39,054 nucleotides of DNA, from the IMG/VR virus record IMGVR_UViG_2874945390_000007. One strand, given 5' to 3'. The notes under the pieces are model-generated. The model did not search any database, was not told the origin of the DNA, and saw nothing but the letters and a program-made list of their open reading frames with translations. A program made the translations under genes and the position numbers. This document shows positions 9,500 through 38,219 of the stretch, in pieces. Source of the DNA: a virus. Lineage: Duplodnaviria > Heunggongvirae > Uroviricota > Caudoviricetes. Position 1 is the first letter of the stretch, and every line of letters begins with the position of its first letter.

Positions 9500-10459
9500 A
9501 TGAAAATTTGTATCGACGACGGCTCCACCAACATCAAGCTGGCATGGACTGAGAACGGCGAACGCCGCAACGCCATCAGCCCGAACAGCTTCAAGTCGGA
9601 ATGGTCTGCGCCGTTCGGTGGCATGCAGCCCGCGAACTACATGCTTGATGGCGTGCGCTATGGTTTTGATCCGGTCAGCGATCGCTTTGTCCAGACAACC
9701 GACACGCAATACCAGTACAGCGATGTAAATGTCATTGCCATTCATCACGCGCTGGTCAAATCAGGCATCACGCCACAGGAGGTGGATGTGGTTGTCACCC
9801 TGCCACTGAGCGAGTATTTCGACACAAACGCACAGCCGGACATGGCCAACATCAACCGCAAAAAAGCGAACGTTATGCGCCCGGTGGAGTACCAGAACGG
9901 CGAAGCATTCACTATCCGTAACGTGCGGGTTATGCCTGAATCCATTCCGGCTGGCTTTAAGGCACTGGCTGACATGAGTCCGTTTGAATCCCTGCTGATT
10001 GTGGATTTGGGCGGAACCACGCTGGATGTGGCAAAGGTTCAGGGGCAACTGGCAGGTATCAGCCAGGTGTTTTGCGATCCACACGTAGGCGTTTCTCTGA
10101 TGGCCGATGCCGTACTGTCGGTGATGGCCACTAACGGTATGCGCACCAGTCACCACATCGCCAATACCATTATCGAACATCGCCATGATGAAGCCTGGCT
10201 GCGCCAGCACATCCACAATGACGCGCATTACGCCAGCCTGATGGCGGTTATTCGTGAAAAGGAAGAAACACTGAAACAACGCGTGATCCGCGCGCTGGCG
10301 GGTTTTTCGGGTTACGGGCGGGTGATGGTTGTCGGTGGAGGGGCGGAGATTGTGGCACCCGCTATCCGCGAAGCCTGCGGAGTTAATGCGACTTTCATCG
10401 CGGACGGGGTGCCACAGTTTGCTCTGGTTAATGGGCTGTACGCAATGGACAAGGAGTAA
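9500..10459 (+). CDS. parM: ParM/StbA-like actin-type partition ATPase
   Basis: 319-aa ORF MKICIDDGSTNIKLAW...YSDVNVIAIHHAL...VMPESIPAG...LLIVDLGGTTLD...VMVVGGGAE... aligns along its length with plasmid R1 ParM (StbA); RBS AAGGAAAAG upstream. Confidence 0.85.
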   Translation: MKICIDDGSTNIKLAWTENGERRNAISPNSFKSEWSAPFGGMQPANYMLDGVRYGFDPVSDRFVQTTDTQYQYSDVNVIAIHHALVKSGITPQEVDVVVTLPLSEYFDTNAQPDMANINRKKANVMRPVEYQNGEAFTIRNVRVMPESIPAGFKALADMSPFESLLIVDLGGTTLDVAKVQGQLAGISQVFCDPHVGVSLMADAVLSVMATNGMRTSHHIANTIIEHRHDEAWLRQHIHNDAHYASLMAVIREKEETLKQRVIRALAGFSGYGRVMVVGGGAEIVAPAIREACGVNATFIADGVPQFALVNGLYAMDKE

Positions 10460-23603: not shown

Positions 23604-25640
23604 ATGAGTACCACAACACGAAAATTTAAAACCATTATCACCGATACGGGTGCAAAAAAATTAGCGCAGGCAACCGCGCCAGATGGGAAACCTGTCCGCC
23701 TGACACATATGGCCGTGGGTGACGGCGGCGGTACTTTACCCACGCCAGACAGTAAGCAGACCCGTCTTGTGCATGAGGTGTGGCGACATACCGTTAATCG
23801 CGTCACCCTGGACGCAACACATCAGAACCACATTATTGCGGAGCTGGTTATTCCTCCTGAAACGGGCGGATTCTGGATCCGGGAAATTGGTGTGTTTGAT
23901 GAGCACGGCGATTTGATCGCGGTAGGCAATACTGCCGAAAGTTACAAGCCAACCGTTGCCGAAGGATCCGGACGTGCACAAACATTTCGCACCATTCTGA
24001 CCGTATCCAGCACTGCCACTGTGGCGCTTACCGTGGATAACACCATGGTGATGGCCACAGTGAATTACGTGGATGACAAACTGAAAGAGCATGAACAGTC
24101 ACGACGTCACCCGGACGCCTCGCTGACCGCAAAAGGCCTTGTCCAGCTCAGCAACGCCACCAACAGCACGTCTGAAACGCTGGCAGCGACACCAAAAGCC
24201 GTTAAGGCAGTAATGGATGAAACGAACAAGAAAGCCCCATTAAACAGCCCGGCACTGACCGGAACGCCAACAACACCAACTGCGCGACAGGGAACGAATA
24301 ATACCCAAATCGCAAGCACGGCTTTCGTTATGGCTGCGATTGCCGCACTTGTAGACTCTTCGCCTGATGCACTGAACACACTGAACGAGCTGGCGGCGGC
24401 GCTGGGCAACGACCCGAATTTTGCGACCACCATGACTAACGCGCTTGCGGGTAAGCAACCGAAAGATGCCACTCTGACGGCGCTGGCGGGGCTTGCTACT
24501 GCGGCAGACAGGTTTCCGTATTTTACGGGGAATGATGTCGCCAGCCTGGCAACCCTGACAAAAGTCGGGCGGGATATTCTTGCGAAATCGACCGTTGCCG
24601 CCGTTATCGAATACCTCGGTTTACAGGAAACGGTAAACAAGGCTGGTAACGCCGTGCAAAAAAATGGCGATACGTTGTCCGGTGGACTTACTTTTGAAAA
24701 CGACTCAATCCTTGCCTGGATTCGAAATACTGACTGGGCAAAGATTGGGTTTAAAAATAATTCGGATGCAGACACCGATTCCTACATGTGGTTTGAAACA
24801 GGCAACAACGGCAATGAATATTTCAAATGGAGACACCGCATCATTGGCACCCGGCCTAAAGACCTGATGAATCTTAAATGGAATGCTTTGTCTGTTCTTG
24901 TTGAAGCCCTTTTCAGCAGTGAAGTGAAAATATCGACAGTCAATGCACTGAGGATATTTAATTCATCTTTTGGTGCCATTTTTCGTCGTTCTGAAGAATG
25001 CCTGCATATCATCCCTACACGAGAGAATGAAGGGGAAAATGGTAATATAGGGCCACTACGCCCCTTTACGCTTAATCTCAGAACTGGCCGGATAAGCATG
25101 GGGCATGGTCTTGATGTTACAGGGGATATATTTGCAAACCGTTTTGCAATTAACAGTAGTACCGGCATGTGGATTCATATGCGTGACCAGAATGTTATTT
25201 TGGGACGTAATGCGGTATCCACTGATGGTGCTCAGGCTTTGCTCCGTCAGGACCATGCCGACCGCAAATTTATGATTGGCGGTCTGGGAAATAAGCAATT
25301 TGGCATCTACATGATTAATAACTCAAGGACAGCCAATGGCACCGATGGTCAGGCGTACATGGATAATAACGGGAACTGGCTTTGCGGCTCGCAAGTTATT
25401 CCCGGCAACTATGGCAATTTTGATTCCAGATATGTGAAAGATGTTCGACTTGGTTCACAGCAATATTATGGAGTGAACAACTGGCAAACATGGAATTTTC
25501 AGTGCCCGTCAGGCTATGTACTGACGGGGATTAACGTACAGGATACCGGAAAAAACTCTGCCGATAATATTGCAGGCGTTCATTACAGGCCAGTGCAAAA
25601 GTATATAAATGGCACTTGGTATAATGTGGCGAGTATTTAA
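23604..25640 (+). CDS. H: tail fibre protein H (constant N-terminal part plus currently expressed variable C-terminal part)
   Basis: 678-aa [25 protein letters not shown]... matching P2 gpH N-terminus; crossover site lies inside the gene at 24604..24629. Confidence 0.9.
24604..24629. repeat. left crossover site for DNA invertase (gix/pix-like), inside gene H
   Basis: ttatcgaatacctcggtttacaggaa; reverse complement ttcctgtaaaccgaggt... shares 17 nt with right site and 12/12 with the Mu gix half-site TTCCTGTAAACC. Confidence 0.8.
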
Positions 25641-25641
25641 T

Positions 25642-26169
25642 ATGATGCACTTAAAGAACATAAAAGCAGGTAATGCTAAAACAGTGGAGCAGTATGAGTT
25701 AACAAAGAAGCACGGAGTCATCTGGCTTTACTCTGAGGACGGAAAAAACTGGTATGAGGAAGTGAAGAACTTTCAGCCAGACACAATAAAGATTGTTTAC
25801 GATGCAAATAATATTATTGTCGCCATCACCAAAGATGCCTCCACGCTTAACCCTGAAGGTTATAGCGTCGTTGAGGTTCCTGATATTACAGCAAATCGTC
25901 GTGCTGATGATTCCGGTAAGTGGATGTTTAAGGACGGAGCTGTGGTTAAACGGATTTATACGGCTGACGAACAGCAACAACAGGCCGAATCACAAAAGGC
26001 CGCATTGCTTTCCGAAGCTGAATCAGTCATCCAGCCGCTGGAACGCGCTGTCAGGCTGAATATGGCGACGGACGAGGAACGCACACGACTGGAAGCATGG
26101 GAACGCTACAGTGTTCTGGTCAGCCGTGTGGATACGGCAAAGCCAGAATGGCCACAAAAGCCTGAGTAA
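25642..26169 (+). CDS. G: tail fibre assembly chaperone (Tfa / P2 gpG-like), active-orientation copy
   Basis: ORF 25609..26169; ATG 25642 ([40 protein letters not shown]...). Confidence 0.85.
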
Positions 26170-26174
26170 AAATT

Positions 26175-26194
26175 AAGGCCCGATATCGGGCCTT
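26175..26194. terminator. bidirectional hairpin between convergent tfa genes
   Basis: 20-bp perfect palindrome aaggcccgatatcgggcctt between stops of 25642..26169 (+) and 26198..26731 (-). Confidence 0.55.
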
Positions 26195-26197
26195 GTT

Positions 26198-26731
26198 TCA
26201 TTCTGGTTGTTCGGGAAACGTTACTGGCAGGCTGGAGGTGTCTGTGGATTCGACCTTCTGCGCATAGAGCATCCACTCGGTTAATTTTTGTTTATTCTCG
26301 TCGGAAATAATGCCCAGCCGTAGCTGTGAGTCCCATAGCTGGGTTTTATCCCTGACGAGCTGTAGCAGGCTTTGCTTTTCATTTTCCGCTTGTTGCCTCT
26401 GCTCTTCCCCGGTATAAGTTCGCTTTATCACTACGCCATCTTTGAACATCCATTTACCTGAAATATCAGCCCGGCGATTTGCTGTAATATCAGGAACCTC
26501 AACGACGCTTGCGCCTTCCGGATTAATTGCTGAAACATCCTTTTCAATACAAATAATAACGCCGTTGTGGTCATAGACCATTTTCAACGTATCAGGCTGA
26601 AAGTTCTTTTGTTCCTCATACCAGTTTTTCCCATCCTCTGTATAAAGCCATTTGATGTTAAATTGTTTCGTTAGCTGGTATTGCTCTTTTGTTTCAGGAT
26701 TACCAGCAGAAATGTTTTTTAAGTGCATCAT
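26198..26731 (-). CDS. alternative tail fibre assembly chaperone (Tfa'), silent-orientation copy
   Basis: 177-aa [43 protein letters not shown]... paralogous to the plus-strand Tfa with divergent C-terminus. Confidence 0.85.
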   Translation of the reverse strand: MMHLKNISAGNPETKEQYQLTKQFNIKWLYTEDGKNWYEEQKNFQPDTLKMVYDHNGVIICIEKDVSAINPEGASVVEVPDITANRRADISGKWMFKDGVVIKRTYTGEEQRQQAENEKQSLLQLVRDKTQLWDSQLRLGIISDENKQKLTEWMLYAQKVESTDTSSLPVTFPEQPE

Positions 26732-26733
26732 CG

Positions 26734-27678
26734 TTAAATACTCCCCGCGTTATACCACGTCCCATTAATGCAATACTGAATTGGCCTTGCCTGAGTTGTA
26801 TCAATTAGTTCATCTCTGTTTGAGTTAACGGAACCGGTAACAACATAACCTGACCTGTCAGACCATCCGGGACCATTCCATGTCTGAACAGATAACAGAC
26901 CACCAAGGCGAATACCTGTAATAAACCTTGAGTTACATTCTGCCTGCGTATATGCACCAACATCTCCCGCAGAGGGTTTGCGGGTTGTGGTGTAAAACTC
27001 TGACCAGTCAGCTTCAAAGCCATAACCATCACGCGCTGAACGATAAAAAATACCGCCGTTCCTGTAATTCACGCGGAACTGTACAGCAGGGCAGCTCCCC
27101 GTATTCATATTGAAGTGGAGGATTAATGTCGATGCGCCACCAATGTTTGCGTTATAGACCCCGCTATTCCAGTTCCAGCCAACAGCTTTATCATTTCCGA
27201 CAGTGCTTCCTGTTTGCCCTAAAGCAAATGCAGGTTGTTGATTTTTCGTGTTGTAGTCTCGTCGCCAGCCAGGAGCGTAAGCATCACCATGATTAATATA
27301 AGTGAATTGAGCGTTAGTAATTCCGCCACCGCTGGACGTGCTCGGCGTGGTAACGCGTATGGTCATTGCGCCGCGAGTGCCAATAACTTCCACCACAGCA
27401 CCTGCAAGACAAATATTTCCGCAACCTGTATCTGTAATGACCTTATTATTTGCATAAGCCCATGAGCCTTTGCACATCCAGTAAGGATGGTTAAATGCTC
27501 CCTGACTCTCCAGCCACGAAATAAATTGCGCGGTTGTCCAGACCTGACTATCGCCACCAATATTCAGCCATGAGCTATATGCGCGGCAGGCACCAATATT
27601 TTTGGTGAAGGTATCTTTCCCCGGAATATCTGCGCCGTTCTGGTTTTTCTGTAATGCGCCAGAAGCCTGATTTACCGT
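26734..27678 (-). other. alternative tail-fibre C-terminal cassette (H variable part, silent orientation; no own start)
   Basis: Minus-strand frame ...LQETVNQASGALQKN...CINGTWYNAGSI is collinear with the H region after the crossover site but has a different receptor-binding C-terminus; ORF-track N-terminal extension to 27834 reads through the crossover site into the IS and is not a real start. Confidence 0.8.
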
Positions 27679-27704
27679 TTCCTGTAAACCGAGGTTTGAG
27701 GTGT
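27679..27704. repeat. right crossover site for DNA invertase (gix/pix-like)
   Basis: ttcctgtaaaccgaggtttgaggtgt; inner half-site identical to left site in inverted orientation, outer half-site more degenerate. Confidence 0.75.
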
Positions 27705-27739
27705 ACTGGCAATAGCGGACACTACCATTTGTTCTTTTT

Positions 27740-28558
27740 TTAAGCAGCCATCTGATGATATTTTTCCCTGAAGGCTGCCGGGGAGATATTCCCCAGACGA
27801 GAGTGACGACGCTGACGATTGTAGAAAATCTCAATGTATTCCCGTATTACTGAGATGGCTTCATCCCGGTTATTAAAACGATAGTGGCTCAGGCTCTCAT
27901 TTTTCAGCGTTCCCCAGAAGCTTTCCATCGGAGCGTTGTCGTAACAGTTACCTTTACGCGACATTGATGTTTTCAGACCAAACTGCTCCTGTATGACCCG
28001 GTAATCGTATGCGCAGTACTGTGAACCTCGATCAGAGTGGTGGATTAGCCCGGCAGGTGGGCGCTGGCTCCTGAGCGCCATAAACAGGGCTTTACCTGTC
28101 AGCTCTTTTGTCATGCGCTCTCCCATGGCGTAGCCGACAATTTCGCACGTATAAACATCTTTGATGCCAGCGAGGTACAACCATCCCTCCTGTGTGGCAA
28201 CATACGTCAGGTCCGCCACCCAGACCTGATTTGGTGCTGTAGGAGCGAACGTCTGGTTCAGCAGATTTGGCGCAACTGGCAGATTGTGGTTCGAGTTCGT
28301 AGTCGCTCTGAACTTGCGTTTCTGCTTACAGCGTAGCCTTAGCTCCTTACGAAGACGTGCCAGTCGGTCACGACCAACGATGATGCCATTCTCTGCCAGC
28401 TCCGTCTGGAGCCGCCGGGTTCCATATGTTTCGCGAGTGCGGATATGTGCCACCTTAATCTCCAGTTTTAGCCGCTCATCACTTTGTTTTCTGTCTGAGG
28501 GTTCATGCTGTACCCAGTTGTAATAACCGCTCCTGGATACACCAAATACCTGACACAT
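27740..28558 (-). CDS. IS3-family transposase OrfB (catalytic DDE domain; expressed as OrfAB fusion by -1 frameshift)
   Basis: 272-aa ORF with ...VWVADLTYV...GWLYLAGIKDVYT...HHSDRGSQY...CYDNAPMESFWGTLK... typical IS3 OrfB. Confidence 0.9.
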   Translation of the reverse strand: MCQVFGVSRSGYYNWVQHEPSDRKQSDERLKLEIKVAHIRTRETYGTRRLQTELAENGIIVGRDRLARLRKELRLRCKQKRKFRATTNSNHNLPVAPNLLNQTFAPTAPNQVWVADLTYVATQEGWLYLAGIKDVYTCEIVGYAMGERMTKELTGKALFMALRSQRPPAGLIHHSDRGSQYCAYDYRVIQEQFGLKTSMSRKGNCYDNAPMESFWGTLKNESLSHYRFNNRDEAISVIREYIEIFYNRQRRHSRLGNISPAAFREKYHQMAA

Positions 28559-28593
28559 CGCTTCAATGGGAAATTGTTGTCGCCATTGTTCGA

Positions 28594-28896
28594 TTAACGC
28601 GTATTTTTCAGCGACTCCTGTGCAAAATACGCTGTTGCTTTTTTTAATATATCTCGCTCAAGGCGAGCTTCATTTAACGCCTTACGCAGTTGCAGAATTT
28701 CAGATTCCAGTTCAGCCACCGTGCGGGAACCAGGAGTACCGAGCCCTTTTCTGGCGGCGGTAACCCATTGTCCTAAAGTGCCTTCAGGAAGAGATAATCG
28801 GGAAGCGCCTTCACTGATCGAAAGTTGATTTTCAAGAACCGTTCTGACAGCTTCGGCTTTGAACTCTTTAGAGTAACGTTGGGTTTTTCTGCTCAT
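28594..28896 (-). CDS. IS3-family transposase OrfA (HTH/leucine zipper)
   Basis: 100-aa ORF MSRKTQRYSKEFKAEAVRTVLENQLSISEGA...; slippery TTA AAA AAA GCA near its 3' end (complement of 28638..28649). Confidence 0.9.
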   Translation of the reverse strand: MSRKTQRYSKEFKAEAVRTVLENQLSISEGASRLSLPEGTLGQWVTAARKGLGTPGSRTVAELESEILQLRKALNEARLERDILKKATAYFAQESLKNTR

Positions 28897-29025
28897 TATT
28901 AGCTCCTTCTGATGCCATTCTATTTCAGGAAGGAGTGTCCGTTAAACTCAGGCTACCTCAGTTTTAGATAATGGCCGTTTCCGGCCTGCATGGCATGATT
29001 TGCGCTTTTGGACGGGAGATTCAGC

Positions 29026-29613
29026 GTGCTGATTGGCTATGTAAGGGTATCAACAAATGACCAGAATACAGACCTGCAACGAAACGCTCTTGTTTGTGCA
29101 GGATGTGAACAAATATTTGAAGATAAATTAAGCGGGACAAAGACAGACCGACCGGGATTAAAACGCGCTTTAAAGCGCCTTCAAAAAGGTGACACGCTGG
29201 TTGTCTGGAAACTGGATCGCCTCGGGCGAAGCATGAAACATCTGATTTCTCTCGTCGGGGAACTACGGGAGCGAGGAATTAATTTTCGCAGTCTGACCGA
29301 CAGCATAGATACATCTTCTCCAATGGGGCGTTTTTTCTTCCACGTGATGGGTGCCCTGGCTGAAATGGAACGTGAATTAATTGTTGAACGTACACTGGCC
29401 GGACTGGCGGCAGCACGCGCACGGGGGCGCACAGGCGGACGTCGACCGAAGCTGACAAAAGAACAGCATGAGCAAATAGCAAGGCTGATCAAAAACGGGC
29501 ACGACAGAAAACAACTGGCAATAATTTACGGCATTGGTATATCGACGATTTATCGTTACCACCCCGCAGGAGAATCAATCGGAACAATAGAGAAGAGTCA
29601 GGAAACAAAATAA
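29026..29613 (+). CDS. pin: serine DNA invertase, Pin/Gin/Hin/Cin family
   Basis: ORF 29008..29613 (TTG); preferred GTG start 29026 giving (M)LIGYVRVSTNDQNTDLQRNAL...LVVWKLDRLGRSMKHL...GINFRSLTDSIDTSSPMGRFFFHVMGALAEMERELIVERT... nearly collinear with e14 Pin; catalytic Ser in YVRVST. Confidence 0.92.
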   Translation: MLIGYVRVSTNDQNTDLQRNALVCAGCEQIFEDKLSGTKTDRPGLKRALKRLQKGDTLVVWKLDRLGRSMKHLISLVGELRERGINFRSLTDSIDTSSPMGRFFFHVMGALAEMERELIVERTLAGLAAARARGRTGGRRPKLTKEQHEQIARLIKNGHDRKQLAIIYGIGISTIYRYHPAGESIGTIEKSQETK

Positions 29614-29641
29614 CCGCTAATCTGACCATTAGCGGTTTTTG
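29613..29641. terminator. hairpin terminator between convergent pin and U
   Basis: accgctaat-ctgacc-attagcggt followed by ttttt; complement side also followed by a T-rich tract. Confidence 0.6.
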
Positions 29642-29648
29642 TGTTAAA

Positions 29649-30143
29649 TCAGAACAACCCTTTAACTGAACTGGCCGCGCTGTTAAGGGATGATGTTACC
29701 TTATCTTTGAAGCCGGACAGCATATCGCTGAACGATGAGGATTGCAGGCGCTCCCGCAAATCCTCATCACAGCGTTCAAGAGTCAGTGAAAATTCTATCT
29801 TTTTCGCCTTACCGTAGCGATCAAACTCGGAGCGGGTCGTATTCGTTTCGGTCAGGACATACATGCCGTAAATCTGCCCGACGCCATCAATCAGAGGCCA
29901 GGGTCGTCCTGTATACGCCTGCGTGGTCAGCAGCGACAGCGACACTTCGCCACCTGTAATTTCAGGATAAAGCACACCAGAAAGAACGATGCGCTCATCA
30001 CCTGCACCGATATACTGCCAGCTTGCCGAACGGTTAACGCGTTCATTTTTCACATGCCGCCAGCTTTTGTTTTGCTGTAACTGCTGATGCGGCAATGTAC
30101 GCAGCTCAAAAACAAACATGCCGTAGATCATCATCATGGCCAT
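29649..30143 (-). CDS. U: tail protein U
   Basis: 164-aa ORF ...FVFELRTLPHQQLQQNKSWRH...GRPWPLIDGVG... resembling P2 gpU. Confidence 0.8.
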   Translation of the reverse strand: MAMMMIYGMFVFELRTLPHQQLQQNKSWRHVKNERVNRSASWQYIGAGDERIVLSGVLYPEITGGEVSLSLLTTQAYTGRPWPLIDGVGQIYGMYVLTETNTTRSEFDRYGKAKKIEFSLTLERCDEDLRERLQSSSFSDMLSGFKDKVTSSLNSAASSVKGLF

Positions 30144-30149
30144 GACTCC

Positions 30150-32993
30150 TCAATCTTTATCGTAAAAACTGCCACGCCCGGCACGGGCGCGCCGTTCCAT
30201 TTCTGCCCTGACCATTTCACCGACCAGTTTCGCCAGTTCGCGGGGATTCTGCGTAACAACGTTATGCAGATGAACATGAATTTCACCACCAAATCCGGAG
30301 GCAACAGGCTCCCGGTTACGGGAAGTTACAGGAACTGATGCCACTGGAGAGCGTATGGCCTCCGCCACCGGGCGGGAGCTGGCCGCAACAACAGGGACCA
30401 GCGCCGGAGGCAGCGGAGCCGGGACCACGGGTGTGATATTAATTGCGGGGGCAGGCTTACTGACCTGCGCAATCTTCCGCTCCTGCCACTCCCCACGAAC
30501 AGCAAGTGCGCGGGGCAGGTTCTTAAAGACAATATCGCCGGGGCCAATGCGTTTTTTCGTCTCATCAACCAGCTTACCTGTGTTATCAGCAATTTTGCTG
30601 AGTCTGCGTAGCGTCCCGGTATTGCTGTCTGTGAGCGGTTTGTTGTCTTTGGGTTTATCACCTCCGGTGCCATTGCCATTTTCCACAGGCTTCGGCGGAT
30701 TGATTTTCGCCAGGTTCCCCTGAAGCAAGGCAACCTTGTCCTGAAGAATGGCCGCACGCTGTGCGTCTTCGATTTTCTTGCGCGCCCTTTCCGCTTCATC
30801 CGGAAGGACGCCAAGTTTTTCAAGTATCCACGCCAGCGTATCCAGTAGCATTTTTGCAGGTGTCAGAACAAGTTGTAACGCACCGCCAAGAACGTTACCG
30901 AATATCTCGCCAGCACTGGCACATTTATCCAGCGTTTCCTTGCTGGACTCCATCGGTGACAGCAGCGATTTAAACCAGTTAAAGACCTGAATAATCCCAT
31001 CGCGCACGACATCAAAAACAGGGCCAAACCGTTCAAAGGTTTCGCGCAACGGGGTCAGCCTTTCCATAATCCCGCTGAACACCCCGGCAAAAAATGCCCT
31101 GATGGGATCCCAGTATTTCCAGATAAGAACGGCAGCTCCGGCAAGCGCAGCCACGATAAGACTAACCGGACTGAACAGCGCCCCGATAGCGCCACCAAGT
31201 AAAGAAACGGAACCCGTCACCATTCCCCATAATGCAGGCAGAACCCTGACAACATTCATTGATTCGGTCAGGAGAGAAAAACCGAGACGCAACGTAGCCA
31301 GCTTCCCGTGAAGCACCCCAATAACCAGAGACAACGAACCAACCGTTGCTGTTGTCGCCAGCAGTGCGCCTCCCGCTATCAGTAACTGGCGCGTCAGTGC
31401 CGGGTGGGCCTGCGCCAGCGCCGTCACCTTTGAGACAACCCGCGTGAGCCACTGCGTGACAGAACGCAGCGGACCGTCAACCAGATCACTGATGCGAATA
31501 CGCAGACCTTCCCATGCACTGCCGAGTGATTTCAGGTTGCCATCAAGGTTATTGGCCATAACCTTTGCCGTGCGTTCTGCCTCACCGCGCGCGCCTTCAA
31601 GTTCTTTTCTCAGTTTGGCTAAGAAGCCGTCACCTGCCGCATCAACGAGGCCCATAAATGATGTGAAAGCCTCTTCTCCGGCAATGTCCTTAAAGAACGA
31701 TACCCGGTCAACCTCCCCGTATTTGCGGGTGGCTTTATAGAGATCGGCCAGCACATTCTCCATCGGGCGCATTTTGCCTTTGGCGTCAGCAACTGACACC
31801 CCCAGCTCTTTCAGTGCTTCTGCCGCTGCCTTTGGCGGTGATGACAGATTGGCCAGGCTTTTACGCAACGCTGTACCTGCATCACTCCCCCTGATACCCA
31901 TCTTCGCCAGCACGCCCGCCATCGCTGCGGCCTGCTCCAGCGATATTCCCAGCTTACCCGCCACCGGACCTGCATATTTCATGGTTTCGCCCAGTGCGCG
32001 AAGGTCAGTGTTGGTACGGGTAAACGCTGCGGTAAGTGTGTCACCGACCCGGTCCATCTGGTCAGCAGAGAGGCCGAACTGCGTCAGGATATTGGAACCA
32101 ATATCCGCCGTCTCGCCGAGGTCCATACCGCCAGCCGTTGCCATGCTCAGCACGCCGGGAAGCGCAGCCTGAATGGCCTGCGGTGTGAAACCAGCCATTG
32201 CAAGAAATGCCTGTCCACTGGCGGCATCGCCTGCGGTGAACTGCGTTTCAGAGCCAAGTTTTAACGCCTGCTCACGCAGCGCCTTAAACTGCGGGCTGTT
32301 TTTATCGATTCGCGTCAGTGCCTGAACACGGGACATCTCTTTCCCGAACCCGATAGCGGGCTGCAAAAAACGCCCGGCAGCATAGCCGCCCGCTGCCGCC
32401 GCACCTGTTGCCAGCGCACCACCTGTTTTCAGTTTTCCCGCTGTTTCCTGCGCGCGTGAATACCGCTCACGCGCCTGCGTTACACGCGCAAGCGCCCGCC
32501 GTTCGCGTTCAAGCTGGTTGTTGTATTGTCCGGTGCGTCTGATGGCCTGCTGGATGGTGTTATCGCTGCCTGTCAGGGAAATGCCGTGGCGTTTCAGCTC
32601 TCCGCCAAGTTCCCGCATTTTCTGAATTTCCCGTGTGCGCGATTCATTCAGGCGTTCAAGCCGGGTGCTTAACTGCTGCATCAGCTTTTGTTGTTTTTCG
32701 CTGAGCACTGTACCCGTGCGTTGTAACTGATTAAGGGCGTTAAGCTGGCGTCGTGCTTTCACGATGCCCGCATCCGCTTTACTGACAGCGTCACGGGCGC
32801 GCTCAAATGAACGCGCCTGACGCTCGAGATTTTTGATCGCCCCCTGCGTTCGCTGGATGGAGTCACCAAACTGCCCCATCAGGCGGCGGGCGTTTTCGGC
32901 AGGCCGGGTCAGCCTGTCAACGGCGCTGAAAGCGACCCGGATATCAAGAGTCTTCATTGTCTGCATTCCCGCTGCGAAGTGCCGCCCGCTCAC
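30150..32993 (-). CDS. T: tail tape measure protein T
   Basis: 947-aa ORF, helical/Ala-rich with central hydrophobic segment; position between E/E' and U. Confidence 0.88.
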   Translation of the reverse strand: MSGRHFAAGMQTMKTLDIRVAFSAVDRLTRPAENARRLMGQFGDSIQRTQGAIKNLERQARSFERARDAVSKADAGIVKARRQLNALNQLQRTGTVLSEKQQKLMQQLSTRLERLNESRTREIQKMRELGGELKRHGISLTGSDNTIQQAIRRTGQYNNQLERERRALARVTQARERYSRAQETAGKLKTGGALATGAAAAGGYAAGRFLQPAIGFGKEMSRVQALTRIDKNSPQFKALREQALKLGSETQFTAGDAASGQAFLAMAGFTPQAIQAALPGVLSMATAGGMDLGETADIGSNILTQFGLSADQMDRVGDTLTAAFTRTNTDLRALGETMKYAGPVAGKLGISLEQAAAMAGVLAKMGIRGSDAGTALRKSLANLSSPPKAAAEALKELGVSVADAKGKMRPMENVLADLYKATRKYGEVDRVSFFKDIAGEEAFTSFMGLVDAAGDGFLAKLRKELEGARGEAERTAKVMANNLDGNLKSLGSAWEGLRIRISDLVDGPLRSVTQWLTRVVSKVTALAQAHPALTRQLLIAGGALLATTATVGSLSLVIGVLHGKLATLRLGFSLLTESMNVVRVLPALWGMVTGSVSLLGGAIGALFSPVSLIVAALAGAAVLIWKYWDPIRAFFAGVFSGIMERLTPLRETFERFGPVFDVVRDGIIQVFNWFKSLLSPMESSKETLDKCASAGEIFGNVLGGALQLVLTPAKMLLDTLAWILEKLGVLPDEAERARKKIEDAQRAAILQDKVALLQGNLAKINPPKPVENGNGTGGDKPKDNKPLTDSNTGTLRRLSKIADNTGKLVDETKKRIGPGDIVFKNLPRALAVRGEWQERKIAQVSKPAPAINITPVVPAPLPPALVPVVAASSRPVAEAIRSPVASVPVTSRNREPVASGFGGEIHVHLHNVVTQNPRELAKLVGEMVRAEMERRARAGRGSFYDKD

Positions 32994-36716: not shown

Positions 36717-38219
36717 ATGAACAAAAAGCTGTATTTATTCCCAGACTCAAACATTTTTCTACAATGCAAGGACTTGACGCAGGTAAATTTTTCCGAGATT
36801 ACTGCTTGTGATGAAGTATGTATCATTATTACAAGGCCCATTCAGCAAGAGATTGACCGCCAGAAAGGGCAAGGTAATTCCCGCCTATCCAAAAAAGCAA
36901 GGAAGGCTGCTAGCCTATTTAATCAAGTAGTTGATTCAACTGACATGACTCTTGTTATTCGTGAACGCTCGCCGCGAGTTTTTCTTACCATGGATCTAAG
37001 CCTGAAACCATGTGAACAGTTATCTGAACAATTGGATTATCAGGAGGCCGACGATCGTTTTGTTGGTATTGCGGCAGGGTATTGCGCTGACGATCCAGAT
37101 TCGGAGGTGGCAATCATTACCAATGATAGCGGTCCACGTTTTTCAGCAATAAAACATAATATAATCTGCTATAAAGTGCCTTCTTCATGGTTGCTTCCTG
37201 CTGAGCCAGATGAAAAGGATAAACAAATTAAATTGCTGGAAGCTAAGCTGAAGCAATTCACTCAGTCTATGCCCGATTTCAGCATTAAAGTAGCCGATGA
37301 CGAGCAATTAAATATTGTACTTCCTTATTATACAGCTTTATCTGAATATGAAGTTGATAATTTGCTTTGTCAACTAACGGATGCATTCCCATTGGTTACA
37401 AACTTTGACAATGAACAAACTACCCCACAATCACTAGAAAAAATCATCAAGTCATTTAGTCAACAGGAGTATTTCCCTGTATCAGCAGATGATATTTCTC
37501 TTTATAAAGAAAAACATTATCCACTTTGGAAAAAGCAGTGTGAAGAAATACTGAAAAACTGTCATACTCATATTAATCCGAAGGCAATAAATTACCCGCT
37601 GTCGTTTTTATTACAAAACACAGGTTATACTATCGCTGAACGTGCTGTGGTAACATTTACAGCAAAAGGAGATTTTCGTCTGTGTGGATTTAATTGGGAG
37701 ATAATGGAAGAGCTGACTGAAAGCAAAAGGATTGACCTACCTTCAGCCCCTACCGCCCCCAAAGGAAAATGGCGTAGTGTATGTGGCGTAACAGAAAGAA
37801 TGCCTTACGCTGGGGGAGCTTTGGAAACACCGCTATCCAGTATAATTTCAAAAGAAATTGGTCCTTTGTTATCTCTTACTCCAACAGAAAGGGATAAAAA
37901 CGATTTTTATTATAAAGAAAAGAGAAATGAGCCAGTTCAAGTTGTATCGCTGGAATGCGAAGAGTGGCGTCATCAAGTCAAAGAAGAAATATTCCCGTTG
38001 TTCGTATATACAGCCAACAAACCAAAGAAAGTGAATGGTGCAATTGAGGTGAGAGTTGATGCAAATAACCTTACCAATCCGGTCATTAAAACATTTAAAT
38101 TAAAAATAACTATAGAAGAACATAGTGCATTTTCAACCATAACAGAAATGGTGCAGACATACATTCAAGAGCAGAAGAAAAGACAGAAAAGTTCTATTAG
38201 CGCACAAATCAAAACATGA
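36717..38219 (+). CDS. PIN-like nuclease domain protein (N-terminal PIN fold, about 350-aa C-terminal region of unknown function); candidate defence gene
   Basis: 500-aa ORF; N-terminus MNKKLYLFPDSNIFLQ... (first acidic residue), ...QQEIDRQ..., ...DDRFVGIAAGY..., ...VAIITNDSGP... fit the four-acidic-residue PIN pattern; visibly AT-rich relative to flanking D and ogr; AT-rich promoter-like upstream region with TTGATA hexamers. Confidence 0.6.
   Translation: MNKKLYLFPDSNIFLQCKDLTQVNFSEITACDEVCIIITRPIQQEIDRQKGQGNSRLSKKARKAASLFNQVVDSTDMTLVIRERSPRVFLTMDLSLKPCEQLSEQLDYQEADDRFVGIAAGYCADDPDSEVAIITNDSGPRFSAIKHNIICYKVPSSWLLPAEPDEKDKQIKLLEAKLKQFTQSMPDFSIKVADDEQLNIVLPYYTALSEYEVDNLLCQLTDAFPLVTNFDNEQTTPQSLEKIIKSFSQQEYFPVSADDISLYKEKHYPLWKKQCEEILKNCHTHINPKAINYPLSFLLQNTGYTIAERAVVTFTAKGDFRLCGFNWEIMEELTESKRIDLPSAPTAPKGKWRSVCGVTERMPYAGGALETPLSSIISKEIGPLLSLTPTERDKNDFYYKEKRNEPVQVVSLECEEWRHQVKEEIFPLFVYTANKPKKVNGAIEVRVDANNLTNPVIKTFKLKITIEEHSAFSTITEMVQTYIQEQKKRQKSSISAQIKT

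Follow-up and report, generated by a model that had tools for sequence, protein, structure and literature searches.

An IS600 insertion in the right crossover site of a Gin/PinB-type invertible tail-fibre segment of a P88-like prophage

Introduction

The closest described relatives of the DNA segment considered here are the invertible B segment of Shigella boydii with its invertase PinB, the G segment of phage Mu with its invertase Gin, and the corresponding segment of phage P88. The B segment and pinB were reportedly described by Tominaga, Ikemizu and Enomoto in 1991, in J Bacteriol 173:4079, with the GenBank entry D00660. Cin of P1 and P7, Pin of e14, Hin, and Min of p15B belong to the same Din family, with 26-bp crossover sites and an enhancer inside the invertase gene. 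Hin of Salmonella governs a promoter and not a set of fibre cassettes; there are six sites in the Min system, and P1 has long inverted repeats. Here we analyzed a 39,054-nt stretch of Caudoviricetes DNA, IMG/VR virus record IMGVR_UViG_2874945390_000007 (referred to below as the window), in which a first-pass annotation had proposed an invertible tail-fibre segment of the Gin family, in which both the fibre C-terminus and the chaperone have an alternative version. Its cassettes, inner half-sites and invertase bear this proposal out, but we found that the right crossover site is split by the insertion sequence (IS) IS600. The window holds a P88-like, P2-family prophage with a B/G-type invertible segment and IS600 inside the right site, and we consider it probable that the resulting chimeric site still works, although weakened.

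Two published observations frame the comparison. The core dinucleotide of the crossover sites is AA in the Cin, Pin, Hin and Min systems and GA in gix of Mu and bix of the B segment (PMC3241671); the sites in the window also have GA. In P88, host range is set by the tip at the C-terminus of the fibre (PMC5285337).

Results

The right crossover site is a chimera of bixR and IS600

We compared the crossover sites with gix and its relatives. The left site, TTATCGAATACCTCGGTTTACAGGAA (24604..24629, minus strand), is native: it is identical to bixL of the S. boydii PinB/B-segment system (Tominaga et al., 1991), as listed together with bixR in Table 3 of PMC3241671, and it matches gix at 24 of 26 positions. 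Read on the minus strand it is TTCCTGTAAACC GA GGTATTCGATAA, with the outer half-site at 24604-24615, the core at 24616-24617 and the inner half-site at 24618-24629. The first-pass annotation had paired it with an inverted 26-mer, TTCCTGTAAACCGAGGTTTGAGGTGT, at 27679-27704. The left member of this pair stands, whereas the right one consists of 18 native bases followed by eight bases of IS600 (27697-27704, TGAGGTGT). The native part (27679..27696, plus strand) comprises the inner half-site (27679-27690), the GA core (27691-27692) and GGTT from the outer half-site (27693-27696), of which GTT (27694-27696) is one copy of a target duplication. The second GTT copy (28961-28963) and what is left of the outer half-site of bixR, TTAGATAA (28964-28971), have been shifted to the far side of the element (28961..28971, plus strand). 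The native right site was thus TTCCTGTAAACC GA GGTTTTAGATAA, with its last eight bases now at 28964-28971, and removal of IS600 together with one GTT copy restores TTCCTGTAAACCGAGGTTTTAGATAA, which is bixR exactly.

The element itself is a member of the IS3 family, 1264 bp long (27697..28960, minus strand) and 100% identical over 1264 bp to annotated IS600; the copies that it matched carry the annotation 'IS3-like element IS600 family transposase'. It starts with TGAGGTGTACTGG at 27697 and ends with CTACCTCA at 28960, forming imperfect terminal inverted repeats (TGAGGT...), and it encodes orfA (28594-28896) and orfB (27740-28558), both on the minus strand, with the Pfam domains HTH_Tnp_1 and rve. 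Length, terminal repeats, the flanking 3-bp GTT duplication and the two domains all agree with its identification as IS600. It entered the right site 4 nt beyond the core and lies between the segment and the invertase gene, where it had previously been overlooked. Deletion of 27697-28963 in silico gave a 194-nt sequence that exactly matches an empty site in E. coli FDAARGOS_943 (L001), whose prophage is 99.9% identical to the window over a 5.4-kb query and 98.7% identical over 9.4 kb.

These results bear directly on the first-pass reading, a canonical Gin/Pin switch that is undamaged, both of its 26-bp sites being native and adjoining the invertase. The inner half-sites, the core, the cassettes and the invertase that it calls for are all present. 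It is nevertheless refuted by the IS600 terminal repeat that supplies the last 8 nt of the right 26-mer, by the position of the native outer half 1267 bp away, and by the exact empty site in a 99.9% identical relative, and we give it practically no credence.

Much of the site survives in the chimera. The inner half-site and GA core are the same at 24616-24629 (minus strand) and 27679-27692 (plus strand), so that the two sites share a core in inverted orientation, and the inner half-sites equal the Mu gix half-site in the same Table 3, as had been noted at first pass. The window has exactly two copies of the 12-mer TTCCTGTAAACC, inverted, at 24618-24629 (minus) and 27679-27690 (plus), against a chance expectation of about 0.005 exact matches for 39 kb when both strands are counted. 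Compared with the native right site, the chimera keeps 22 of 26 positions, the four mismatches being IS-derived. Its outer half-site, GGTT plus the end of IS600, keeps GGTTT and is native at 8 of 12 positions; the outer half-sites of a natural cix site (cixL) and of several mix sites deviate as much (PMC3241671, Table 3).

The invertase is intact but has been moved away from the segment

The Pin-like invertase of the first-pass annotation is present and intact at 29026..29613 (plus strand; 195 amino acids, GTG start; Pfam Resolvase, E-value 1.3e-50, and HTH_7, E-value 1.6e-13). The identity of the sites with bixL and bixR and the 81% amino acid identity to Mu Gin indicate, however, that it is nearer Gin and PinB than e14 Pin. 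It differs from Gin at one position in the first 119 residues, nearly matches it throughout the catalytic domain and conserves the catalytic-serine motif YVRVSTNDQ. The uninterrupted FDAARGOS_943 prophage encodes the identical protein (100%).

A Fis-dependent recombinational enhancer is presumed to lie within the 5' part of the invertase gene, at approximately 29050..29135 (no strand assigned), a placement that follows Gin, Hin (PMC3798978) and Cin; the enhancer of Din systems normally lies ~100 bp from one site. With three differences from Mu gin in the first 235 nt of the gene, the enhancer region appears intact. Strict matches to the Fis consensus are centred at +40 and +77 of the gene; this 37-bp spacing differs from the 48-bp spacing of the Fis sites of Hin, and we therefore infer the enhancer boundaries from the identity to Mu gin. 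IS600 has displaced the invertase gene and the presumed enhancer by 1267 bp, and the distance from the core to the first Fis-consensus match has grown from ~107 bp in the empty site to ~1374 bp in the window.

Established knowledge of Gin and Hin suggests how such a switch would operate. By homology, invertase dimers would bind the two inverted 26-bp sites, and synapsis would occur at the enhancer near the 5' end of the invertase gene, with Fis bound to it; cleavage at the 2-bp GA core would then be followed by strand exchange through subunit rotation, and ~3.06 kb would flip. The constant part of the fibre gene, Sc, would thereby be joined either to the variable part Sv with the chaperone Tfa, as at present, or to Sv' with Tfa', and the receptor specificity of the phage would change with orientation. 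Hin substrates with long DNA between site and enhancer still recombine, with additional subunit rotations (PMC3798978). Since such substrates allow extra rotations, processive exchange, with a lower yield of simple inversions and some knotting, is a reasonable prediction for the long site-enhancer loop in the window.

Both orientations occur in relatives with and without IS600

Next, we asked in which orientations the segment is found. We searched 5426 E. coli complete genomes with left-junction queries of the window type and of a type flipped in silico (Sc joined to Sv'), with at least 80% of the query covered. The window-type junction was found in 321 genomes and the flipped one in 126. In the prophage of E. 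coli O145 RM9467-C1 (L004), the central block is inverted, the flanks are collinear and both sites are intact. Inversion in P2-like prophages of enteropathogenic E. coli (EPEC) E2348/69 has been confirmed by sequencing and PCR (PMC4272514). Given both orientations among relatives and the EPEC experiments, this segment family switches.

Exact-protein look-ups and a junction scan then revealed nine other loci with the identical IS600 insertion, all with the same position, IS orientation, target duplication and IS junctions on both sides. The segment has the same orientation as in the window (orientation A) in L010 (GCA_900457235.1) and L016 (CP026836.1), and is flipped from site to site (orientation B) in L007/L018 (CP032523.1), L020 (CP044191.1), L024, L019 (CP180280.1), L025 and L015. 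Position 30716 is T in all IS-bearing loci that reach it and C in every IS-less locus examined, including P88; in the regions compared, the closest IS-less loci otherwise differ from the window only at 25893. An exact 301-mer around the 30716 T had no perfect match in the 5426 E. coli genomes.

The junction between site and IS, CCTGTAAACCGAGGTTTGAGGTGTACTGGC, was likewise found in none of these 5426 genomes, although at least 447 of them carry the junction type and 1614 a full IS600. It had no match in a contig collection with one genome per species, and a scan of viral contigs returned one locus, L015. Some E. coli junction hits extended a short way upstream, and these were set aside since their contexts were unrelated (a lambdoid tail gene, gtrA).

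The shared junctions and the T at 30716, private to IS-bearing loci, make a single ancestral insertion of IS600 the parsimonious explanation. If there was a single insertion, the presence of both orientations among its descendants means that at least one site-to-site inversion took place afterwards, which suggests that the chimera functions as a weakened crossover site.

Other causes of the flip fit less well. Recombination between IS copies was rejected because the inverted block in L007 runs from site to site, past an internal IS, and because such an IS is absent from L015 and L019, which are flipped as well. Reasoning also excludes a double crossover with another prophage: the native DNA between the segment and the IS amounts to just 18 bp. 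RecA-mediated homologous recombination across a short inverted repeat, in place of the invertase, could have used the ends of the segment, which form a 25-nt perfect inverted repeat inside a 52-nt repeat of 81% identity; but 25 nt is at the lower length limit for such recombination, the locus has in cis an invertase that is intact and an enhancer region that is conserved, the breakpoints lie within the core-containing stretch, and the same flip is common in uninterrupted relatives. We regard the RecA route as very improbable.

Several points weigh against a site that still works. In the Hin-hix structure, the part of the outer half-site in which the four changes fall is read by the helix-turn-helix domain. 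Scans of the window and of the empty site revealed no plus-strand sigma-70-like promoter upstream of the invertase. In L026 (5000-5033), an IS600 copy that is unrelated to this one and lies among lambdoid tail genes has the flank GGTAAACGGAGGTC followed by TGAGGTGT, resembling the target at 27683-27704 of the window, TGTAAACCGAGGTT followed by TGAGGTGT; IS600 may thus prefer GAGGT-like targets beside its own TGAGGT end, which would make independent insertions somewhat likelier. Orientation is also uniform within each recognisable sub-group: the pair with A at 25893 (the window and L016) is in orientation A, and orientation B is found in all three genomes whose Tfa' gene carries a second IS600. 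This uniformity hints at slow switching, without proving it, and is compatible with a very low rate, or even with a switch that no longer works. Strictly, the data require one inversion after the insertion and no more, and they come from comparison between genomes rather than from ongoing switching within a strain.

An alternative is a locked switch, in which IS600 destroyed the right site and froze Sv and Tfa in place, the flipped relatives having acquired the element by independent insertions at a preferred target in prophages whose segment already faced the other way. The change of 4 of 12 outer half-site positions, the displaced enhancer, the uniform sub-lineages and the similar flank of the other IS600 copy all speak for it. 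On the other hand, the nine loci agree in position, IS orientation and target duplication, the derived T at 30716 is common to IS-bearing loci and absent from the sampled IS-less ones, and not one of the E. coli genomes searched has the insertion at this site despite the many opportunities. We therefore think a locked switch unlikely.

Returning to the weakened but working site, the present switching rate is probably reduced. With somewhat better than even confidence, we suggest that a Gin-family site can tolerate the end of IS600 in the distal 8 bp of a half-site and a move of the enhancer from ~0.1 to ~1.4 kb, that it has inverted in nature in this state, and that the prophage, present in records named S. 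boydii and in records named S. sonnei, maintains itself and may be spreading with its switch slowed or near-frozen.

The host records themselves deserve mention. L016 is identical to the window over 13,101 nt (100%). Its genome, CP026836.1, is named S. boydii in PMC12817139, and PMC12511311 gives CP180280.1, which carries L019, as S. sonnei 201809330. These two share one and the same prophage, including the IS, its junctions and the private single-nucleotide polymorphism, which implies either horizontal spread of an IS-carrying phage or a naming problem.

The second IS600 mentioned above lies at 1689-2957 of L007 (and also in L020 and L024), in the opposite orientation and inside the Tfa' gene. 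It is at the window equivalent of 26326-26328, where a 3-bp overlap represents the target duplication, and it truncates Tfa' to 137 amino acids, so that the fibre expressed in orientation B in these three genomes would be without an intact chaperone.

Gene content of the segment

Open reading frames (ORFs) and Pfam matches place the cassettes on the strands given at first pass, with Sv and Tfa on the plus strand and Tfa' and Sv' on the minus strand. The tail-fibre gene H (23604-25640, plus strand; 678 amino acids) contains the left site. Its constant N-terminal part, Sc (23604..24603, plus), holds the promoter-proximal start, joins in frame with whichever cassette faces it, and matches the Phage_tail_fib N-terminal domain (E-value 3.8e-56) and Phage_fiber_2. 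The C-terminus expressed now, Sv (24630..25640, plus; 336 amino acids), was delimited by the ORF and by comparison with Mu; its homologues carry the Gp34_trimer family annotation. Sv is paired with Tfa/U, a chaperone for tail-fibre assembly (25642..26169, plus; Caudo_TAP, E-value 2.5e-37).

On the opposite strand, the alternative chaperone Tfa'/U' (26198..26731, minus; Caudo_TAP, E-value 7.1e-37) is silent in the present orientation, and the alternative C-terminus Sv' (26734..27678, minus; 314 amino acids), assigned by comparison with Mu S', has no start of its own. Inversion would fuse Sv' to Sc and yield a 656-amino-acid H'; genes for a 656-amino-acid H' are found in flipped relatives. That the two fibre tips differ, as claimed at first pass, is confirmed by an identity of just 40% between Sv and Sv' across the last 75 residues; Tfa and Tfa' are 58% identical. 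Sv is replaced by a different cassette in L004 (window 24645-25405 compared) and in L005-L012.

The insertion has also created a 366-amino-acid chimeric ORF (26734-27834, minus strand) that begins in IS600 and crosses the crossover site into Sv'. Five NCBI genomes have it annotated as a gene, which is most likely an artefact that the insertion has caused.

The host prophage and neighbouring genes

Phage P88 (Xuanwuvirus, Peduoviridae) matches 84% of the prophage query at 95.8% identity, and P2-type families (Phage_GPA, GPW_gp25, Tail_P2_I, Phage_P2_GpU and GpE) mark the baseplate, tail and replication genes of the prophage in the window. Upstream of the segment are the P2-type H N-terminus and the baseplate genes J and I; downstream are gpU and the genes for tape measure, tube and sheath. 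Homology to Mu begins just before the left site, and the context of the segment in Mu (Mu S N-terminus upstream, com/mom downstream) was not found in the window. P2 itself matches only 24300-26162 of the window (88%), that is, the expressed Sv and Tfa. Sequence comparison found neither a second cassette nor an invertase in P2, in agreement with the earlier statement that P2 lacks the switch.

The invertase gene converges with a gpU-like tail gene (29649-30143, minus strand). Between them, a hairpin with a 10-bp stem and T-runs on both strands (29612..29637) is likely a bidirectional terminator; it is conserved in the FDAARGOS_943 prophage.

Elsewhere in the window, a ParM/StbA-type actin-like segregation protein is encoded downstream of gpA (9500-10459, plus strand; StbA_N, E-value 2.7e-82; ParM C-terminal domain, E-value 1.3e-68), an unusual cargo for a P2-like prophage. 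Past the tail cluster, near the end of the window, a 500-amino-acid protein (36717-38219, plus) has an N-terminal PIN_4 domain (E-value 4.5e-08) and no PADLOC hit. A FecCD-type permease gene of the host (614-1594) is followed by two small minus-strand ORFs (1787-2341 and 2325-2825) and then by the integrase gene of the phage (2828-3955). One of the two ORFs encodes a coiled-coil protein with only weak hits to ZorA and LmuB models (E-value ~1e-4), whereas nothing was hit with the other. Scans of the window with Rfam and for tRNA genes gave no matches.

Discussion

What changes here is the annotation, now that of a P88-like prophage with G-type cassettes, bix sites and an invertase of the PinB/Gin type; the switch is textbook biology, and no new principle is involved. 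When IS600 goes unnoticed, annotation by program or by eye calls a functional two-site switch and a spurious 366-amino-acid gene. The IS600 junction, together with the T at 30716, provides a marker for this Shigella prophage lineage. If the comparative inference is true, the locus is a natural test of the minimum that a Din crossover site needs and of how far away the enhancer can be.

Among the described systems, we compared the S. boydii B segment and PinB by means of Table 3 of PMC3241671. It has the same bixL, the same bixR once the site in the window is rejoined, and the same GA core, and it resembles the window in having a segment of ~3 kb with the invertase adjoining; it differs in that bixR of the window is split by IS600.

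The G segments of Mu, D108 and SfMu are 91-95% identical to the window segment in DNA, and the Mu segment has the same gene order and invertase position. The inner half-sites and core are identical to those of gix, and the outer half-sites differ by 1-2 nt. Similarity to Mu is uneven along the segment: amino acid identity to the Mu S'/U', or G(-), pair is 98.4% for Sv' and 97.7% for Tfa', and Tfa is 90% identical to Mu U, while Sv is 66% identical to Mu Sv of the G(+) state. An identity of ~98% for Sv' and Tfa' against just 66% for Sv, together with the replacement of Sv in other loci, shows the two cassettes evolving in different ways and indicates modular exchange of a single cassette. Mu differs in that the host element of the window is a P2-family prophage with a P2-type H N-terminus, and in the IS600 within the right site.

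The C segments of P1 and P7 are 87-91% identical to the window segment in DNA. Segment, sites and invertase are all shared with P88 (~94% identity), and in P88 and the E. coli relatives the right site is uninterrupted. The switch is therefore already known from bix/PinB, from the Mu G segment with Gin and from P88-like phages. Judging by these sequence comparisons, its only new element seems to be an IS-split crossover site that has apparently kept some activity.

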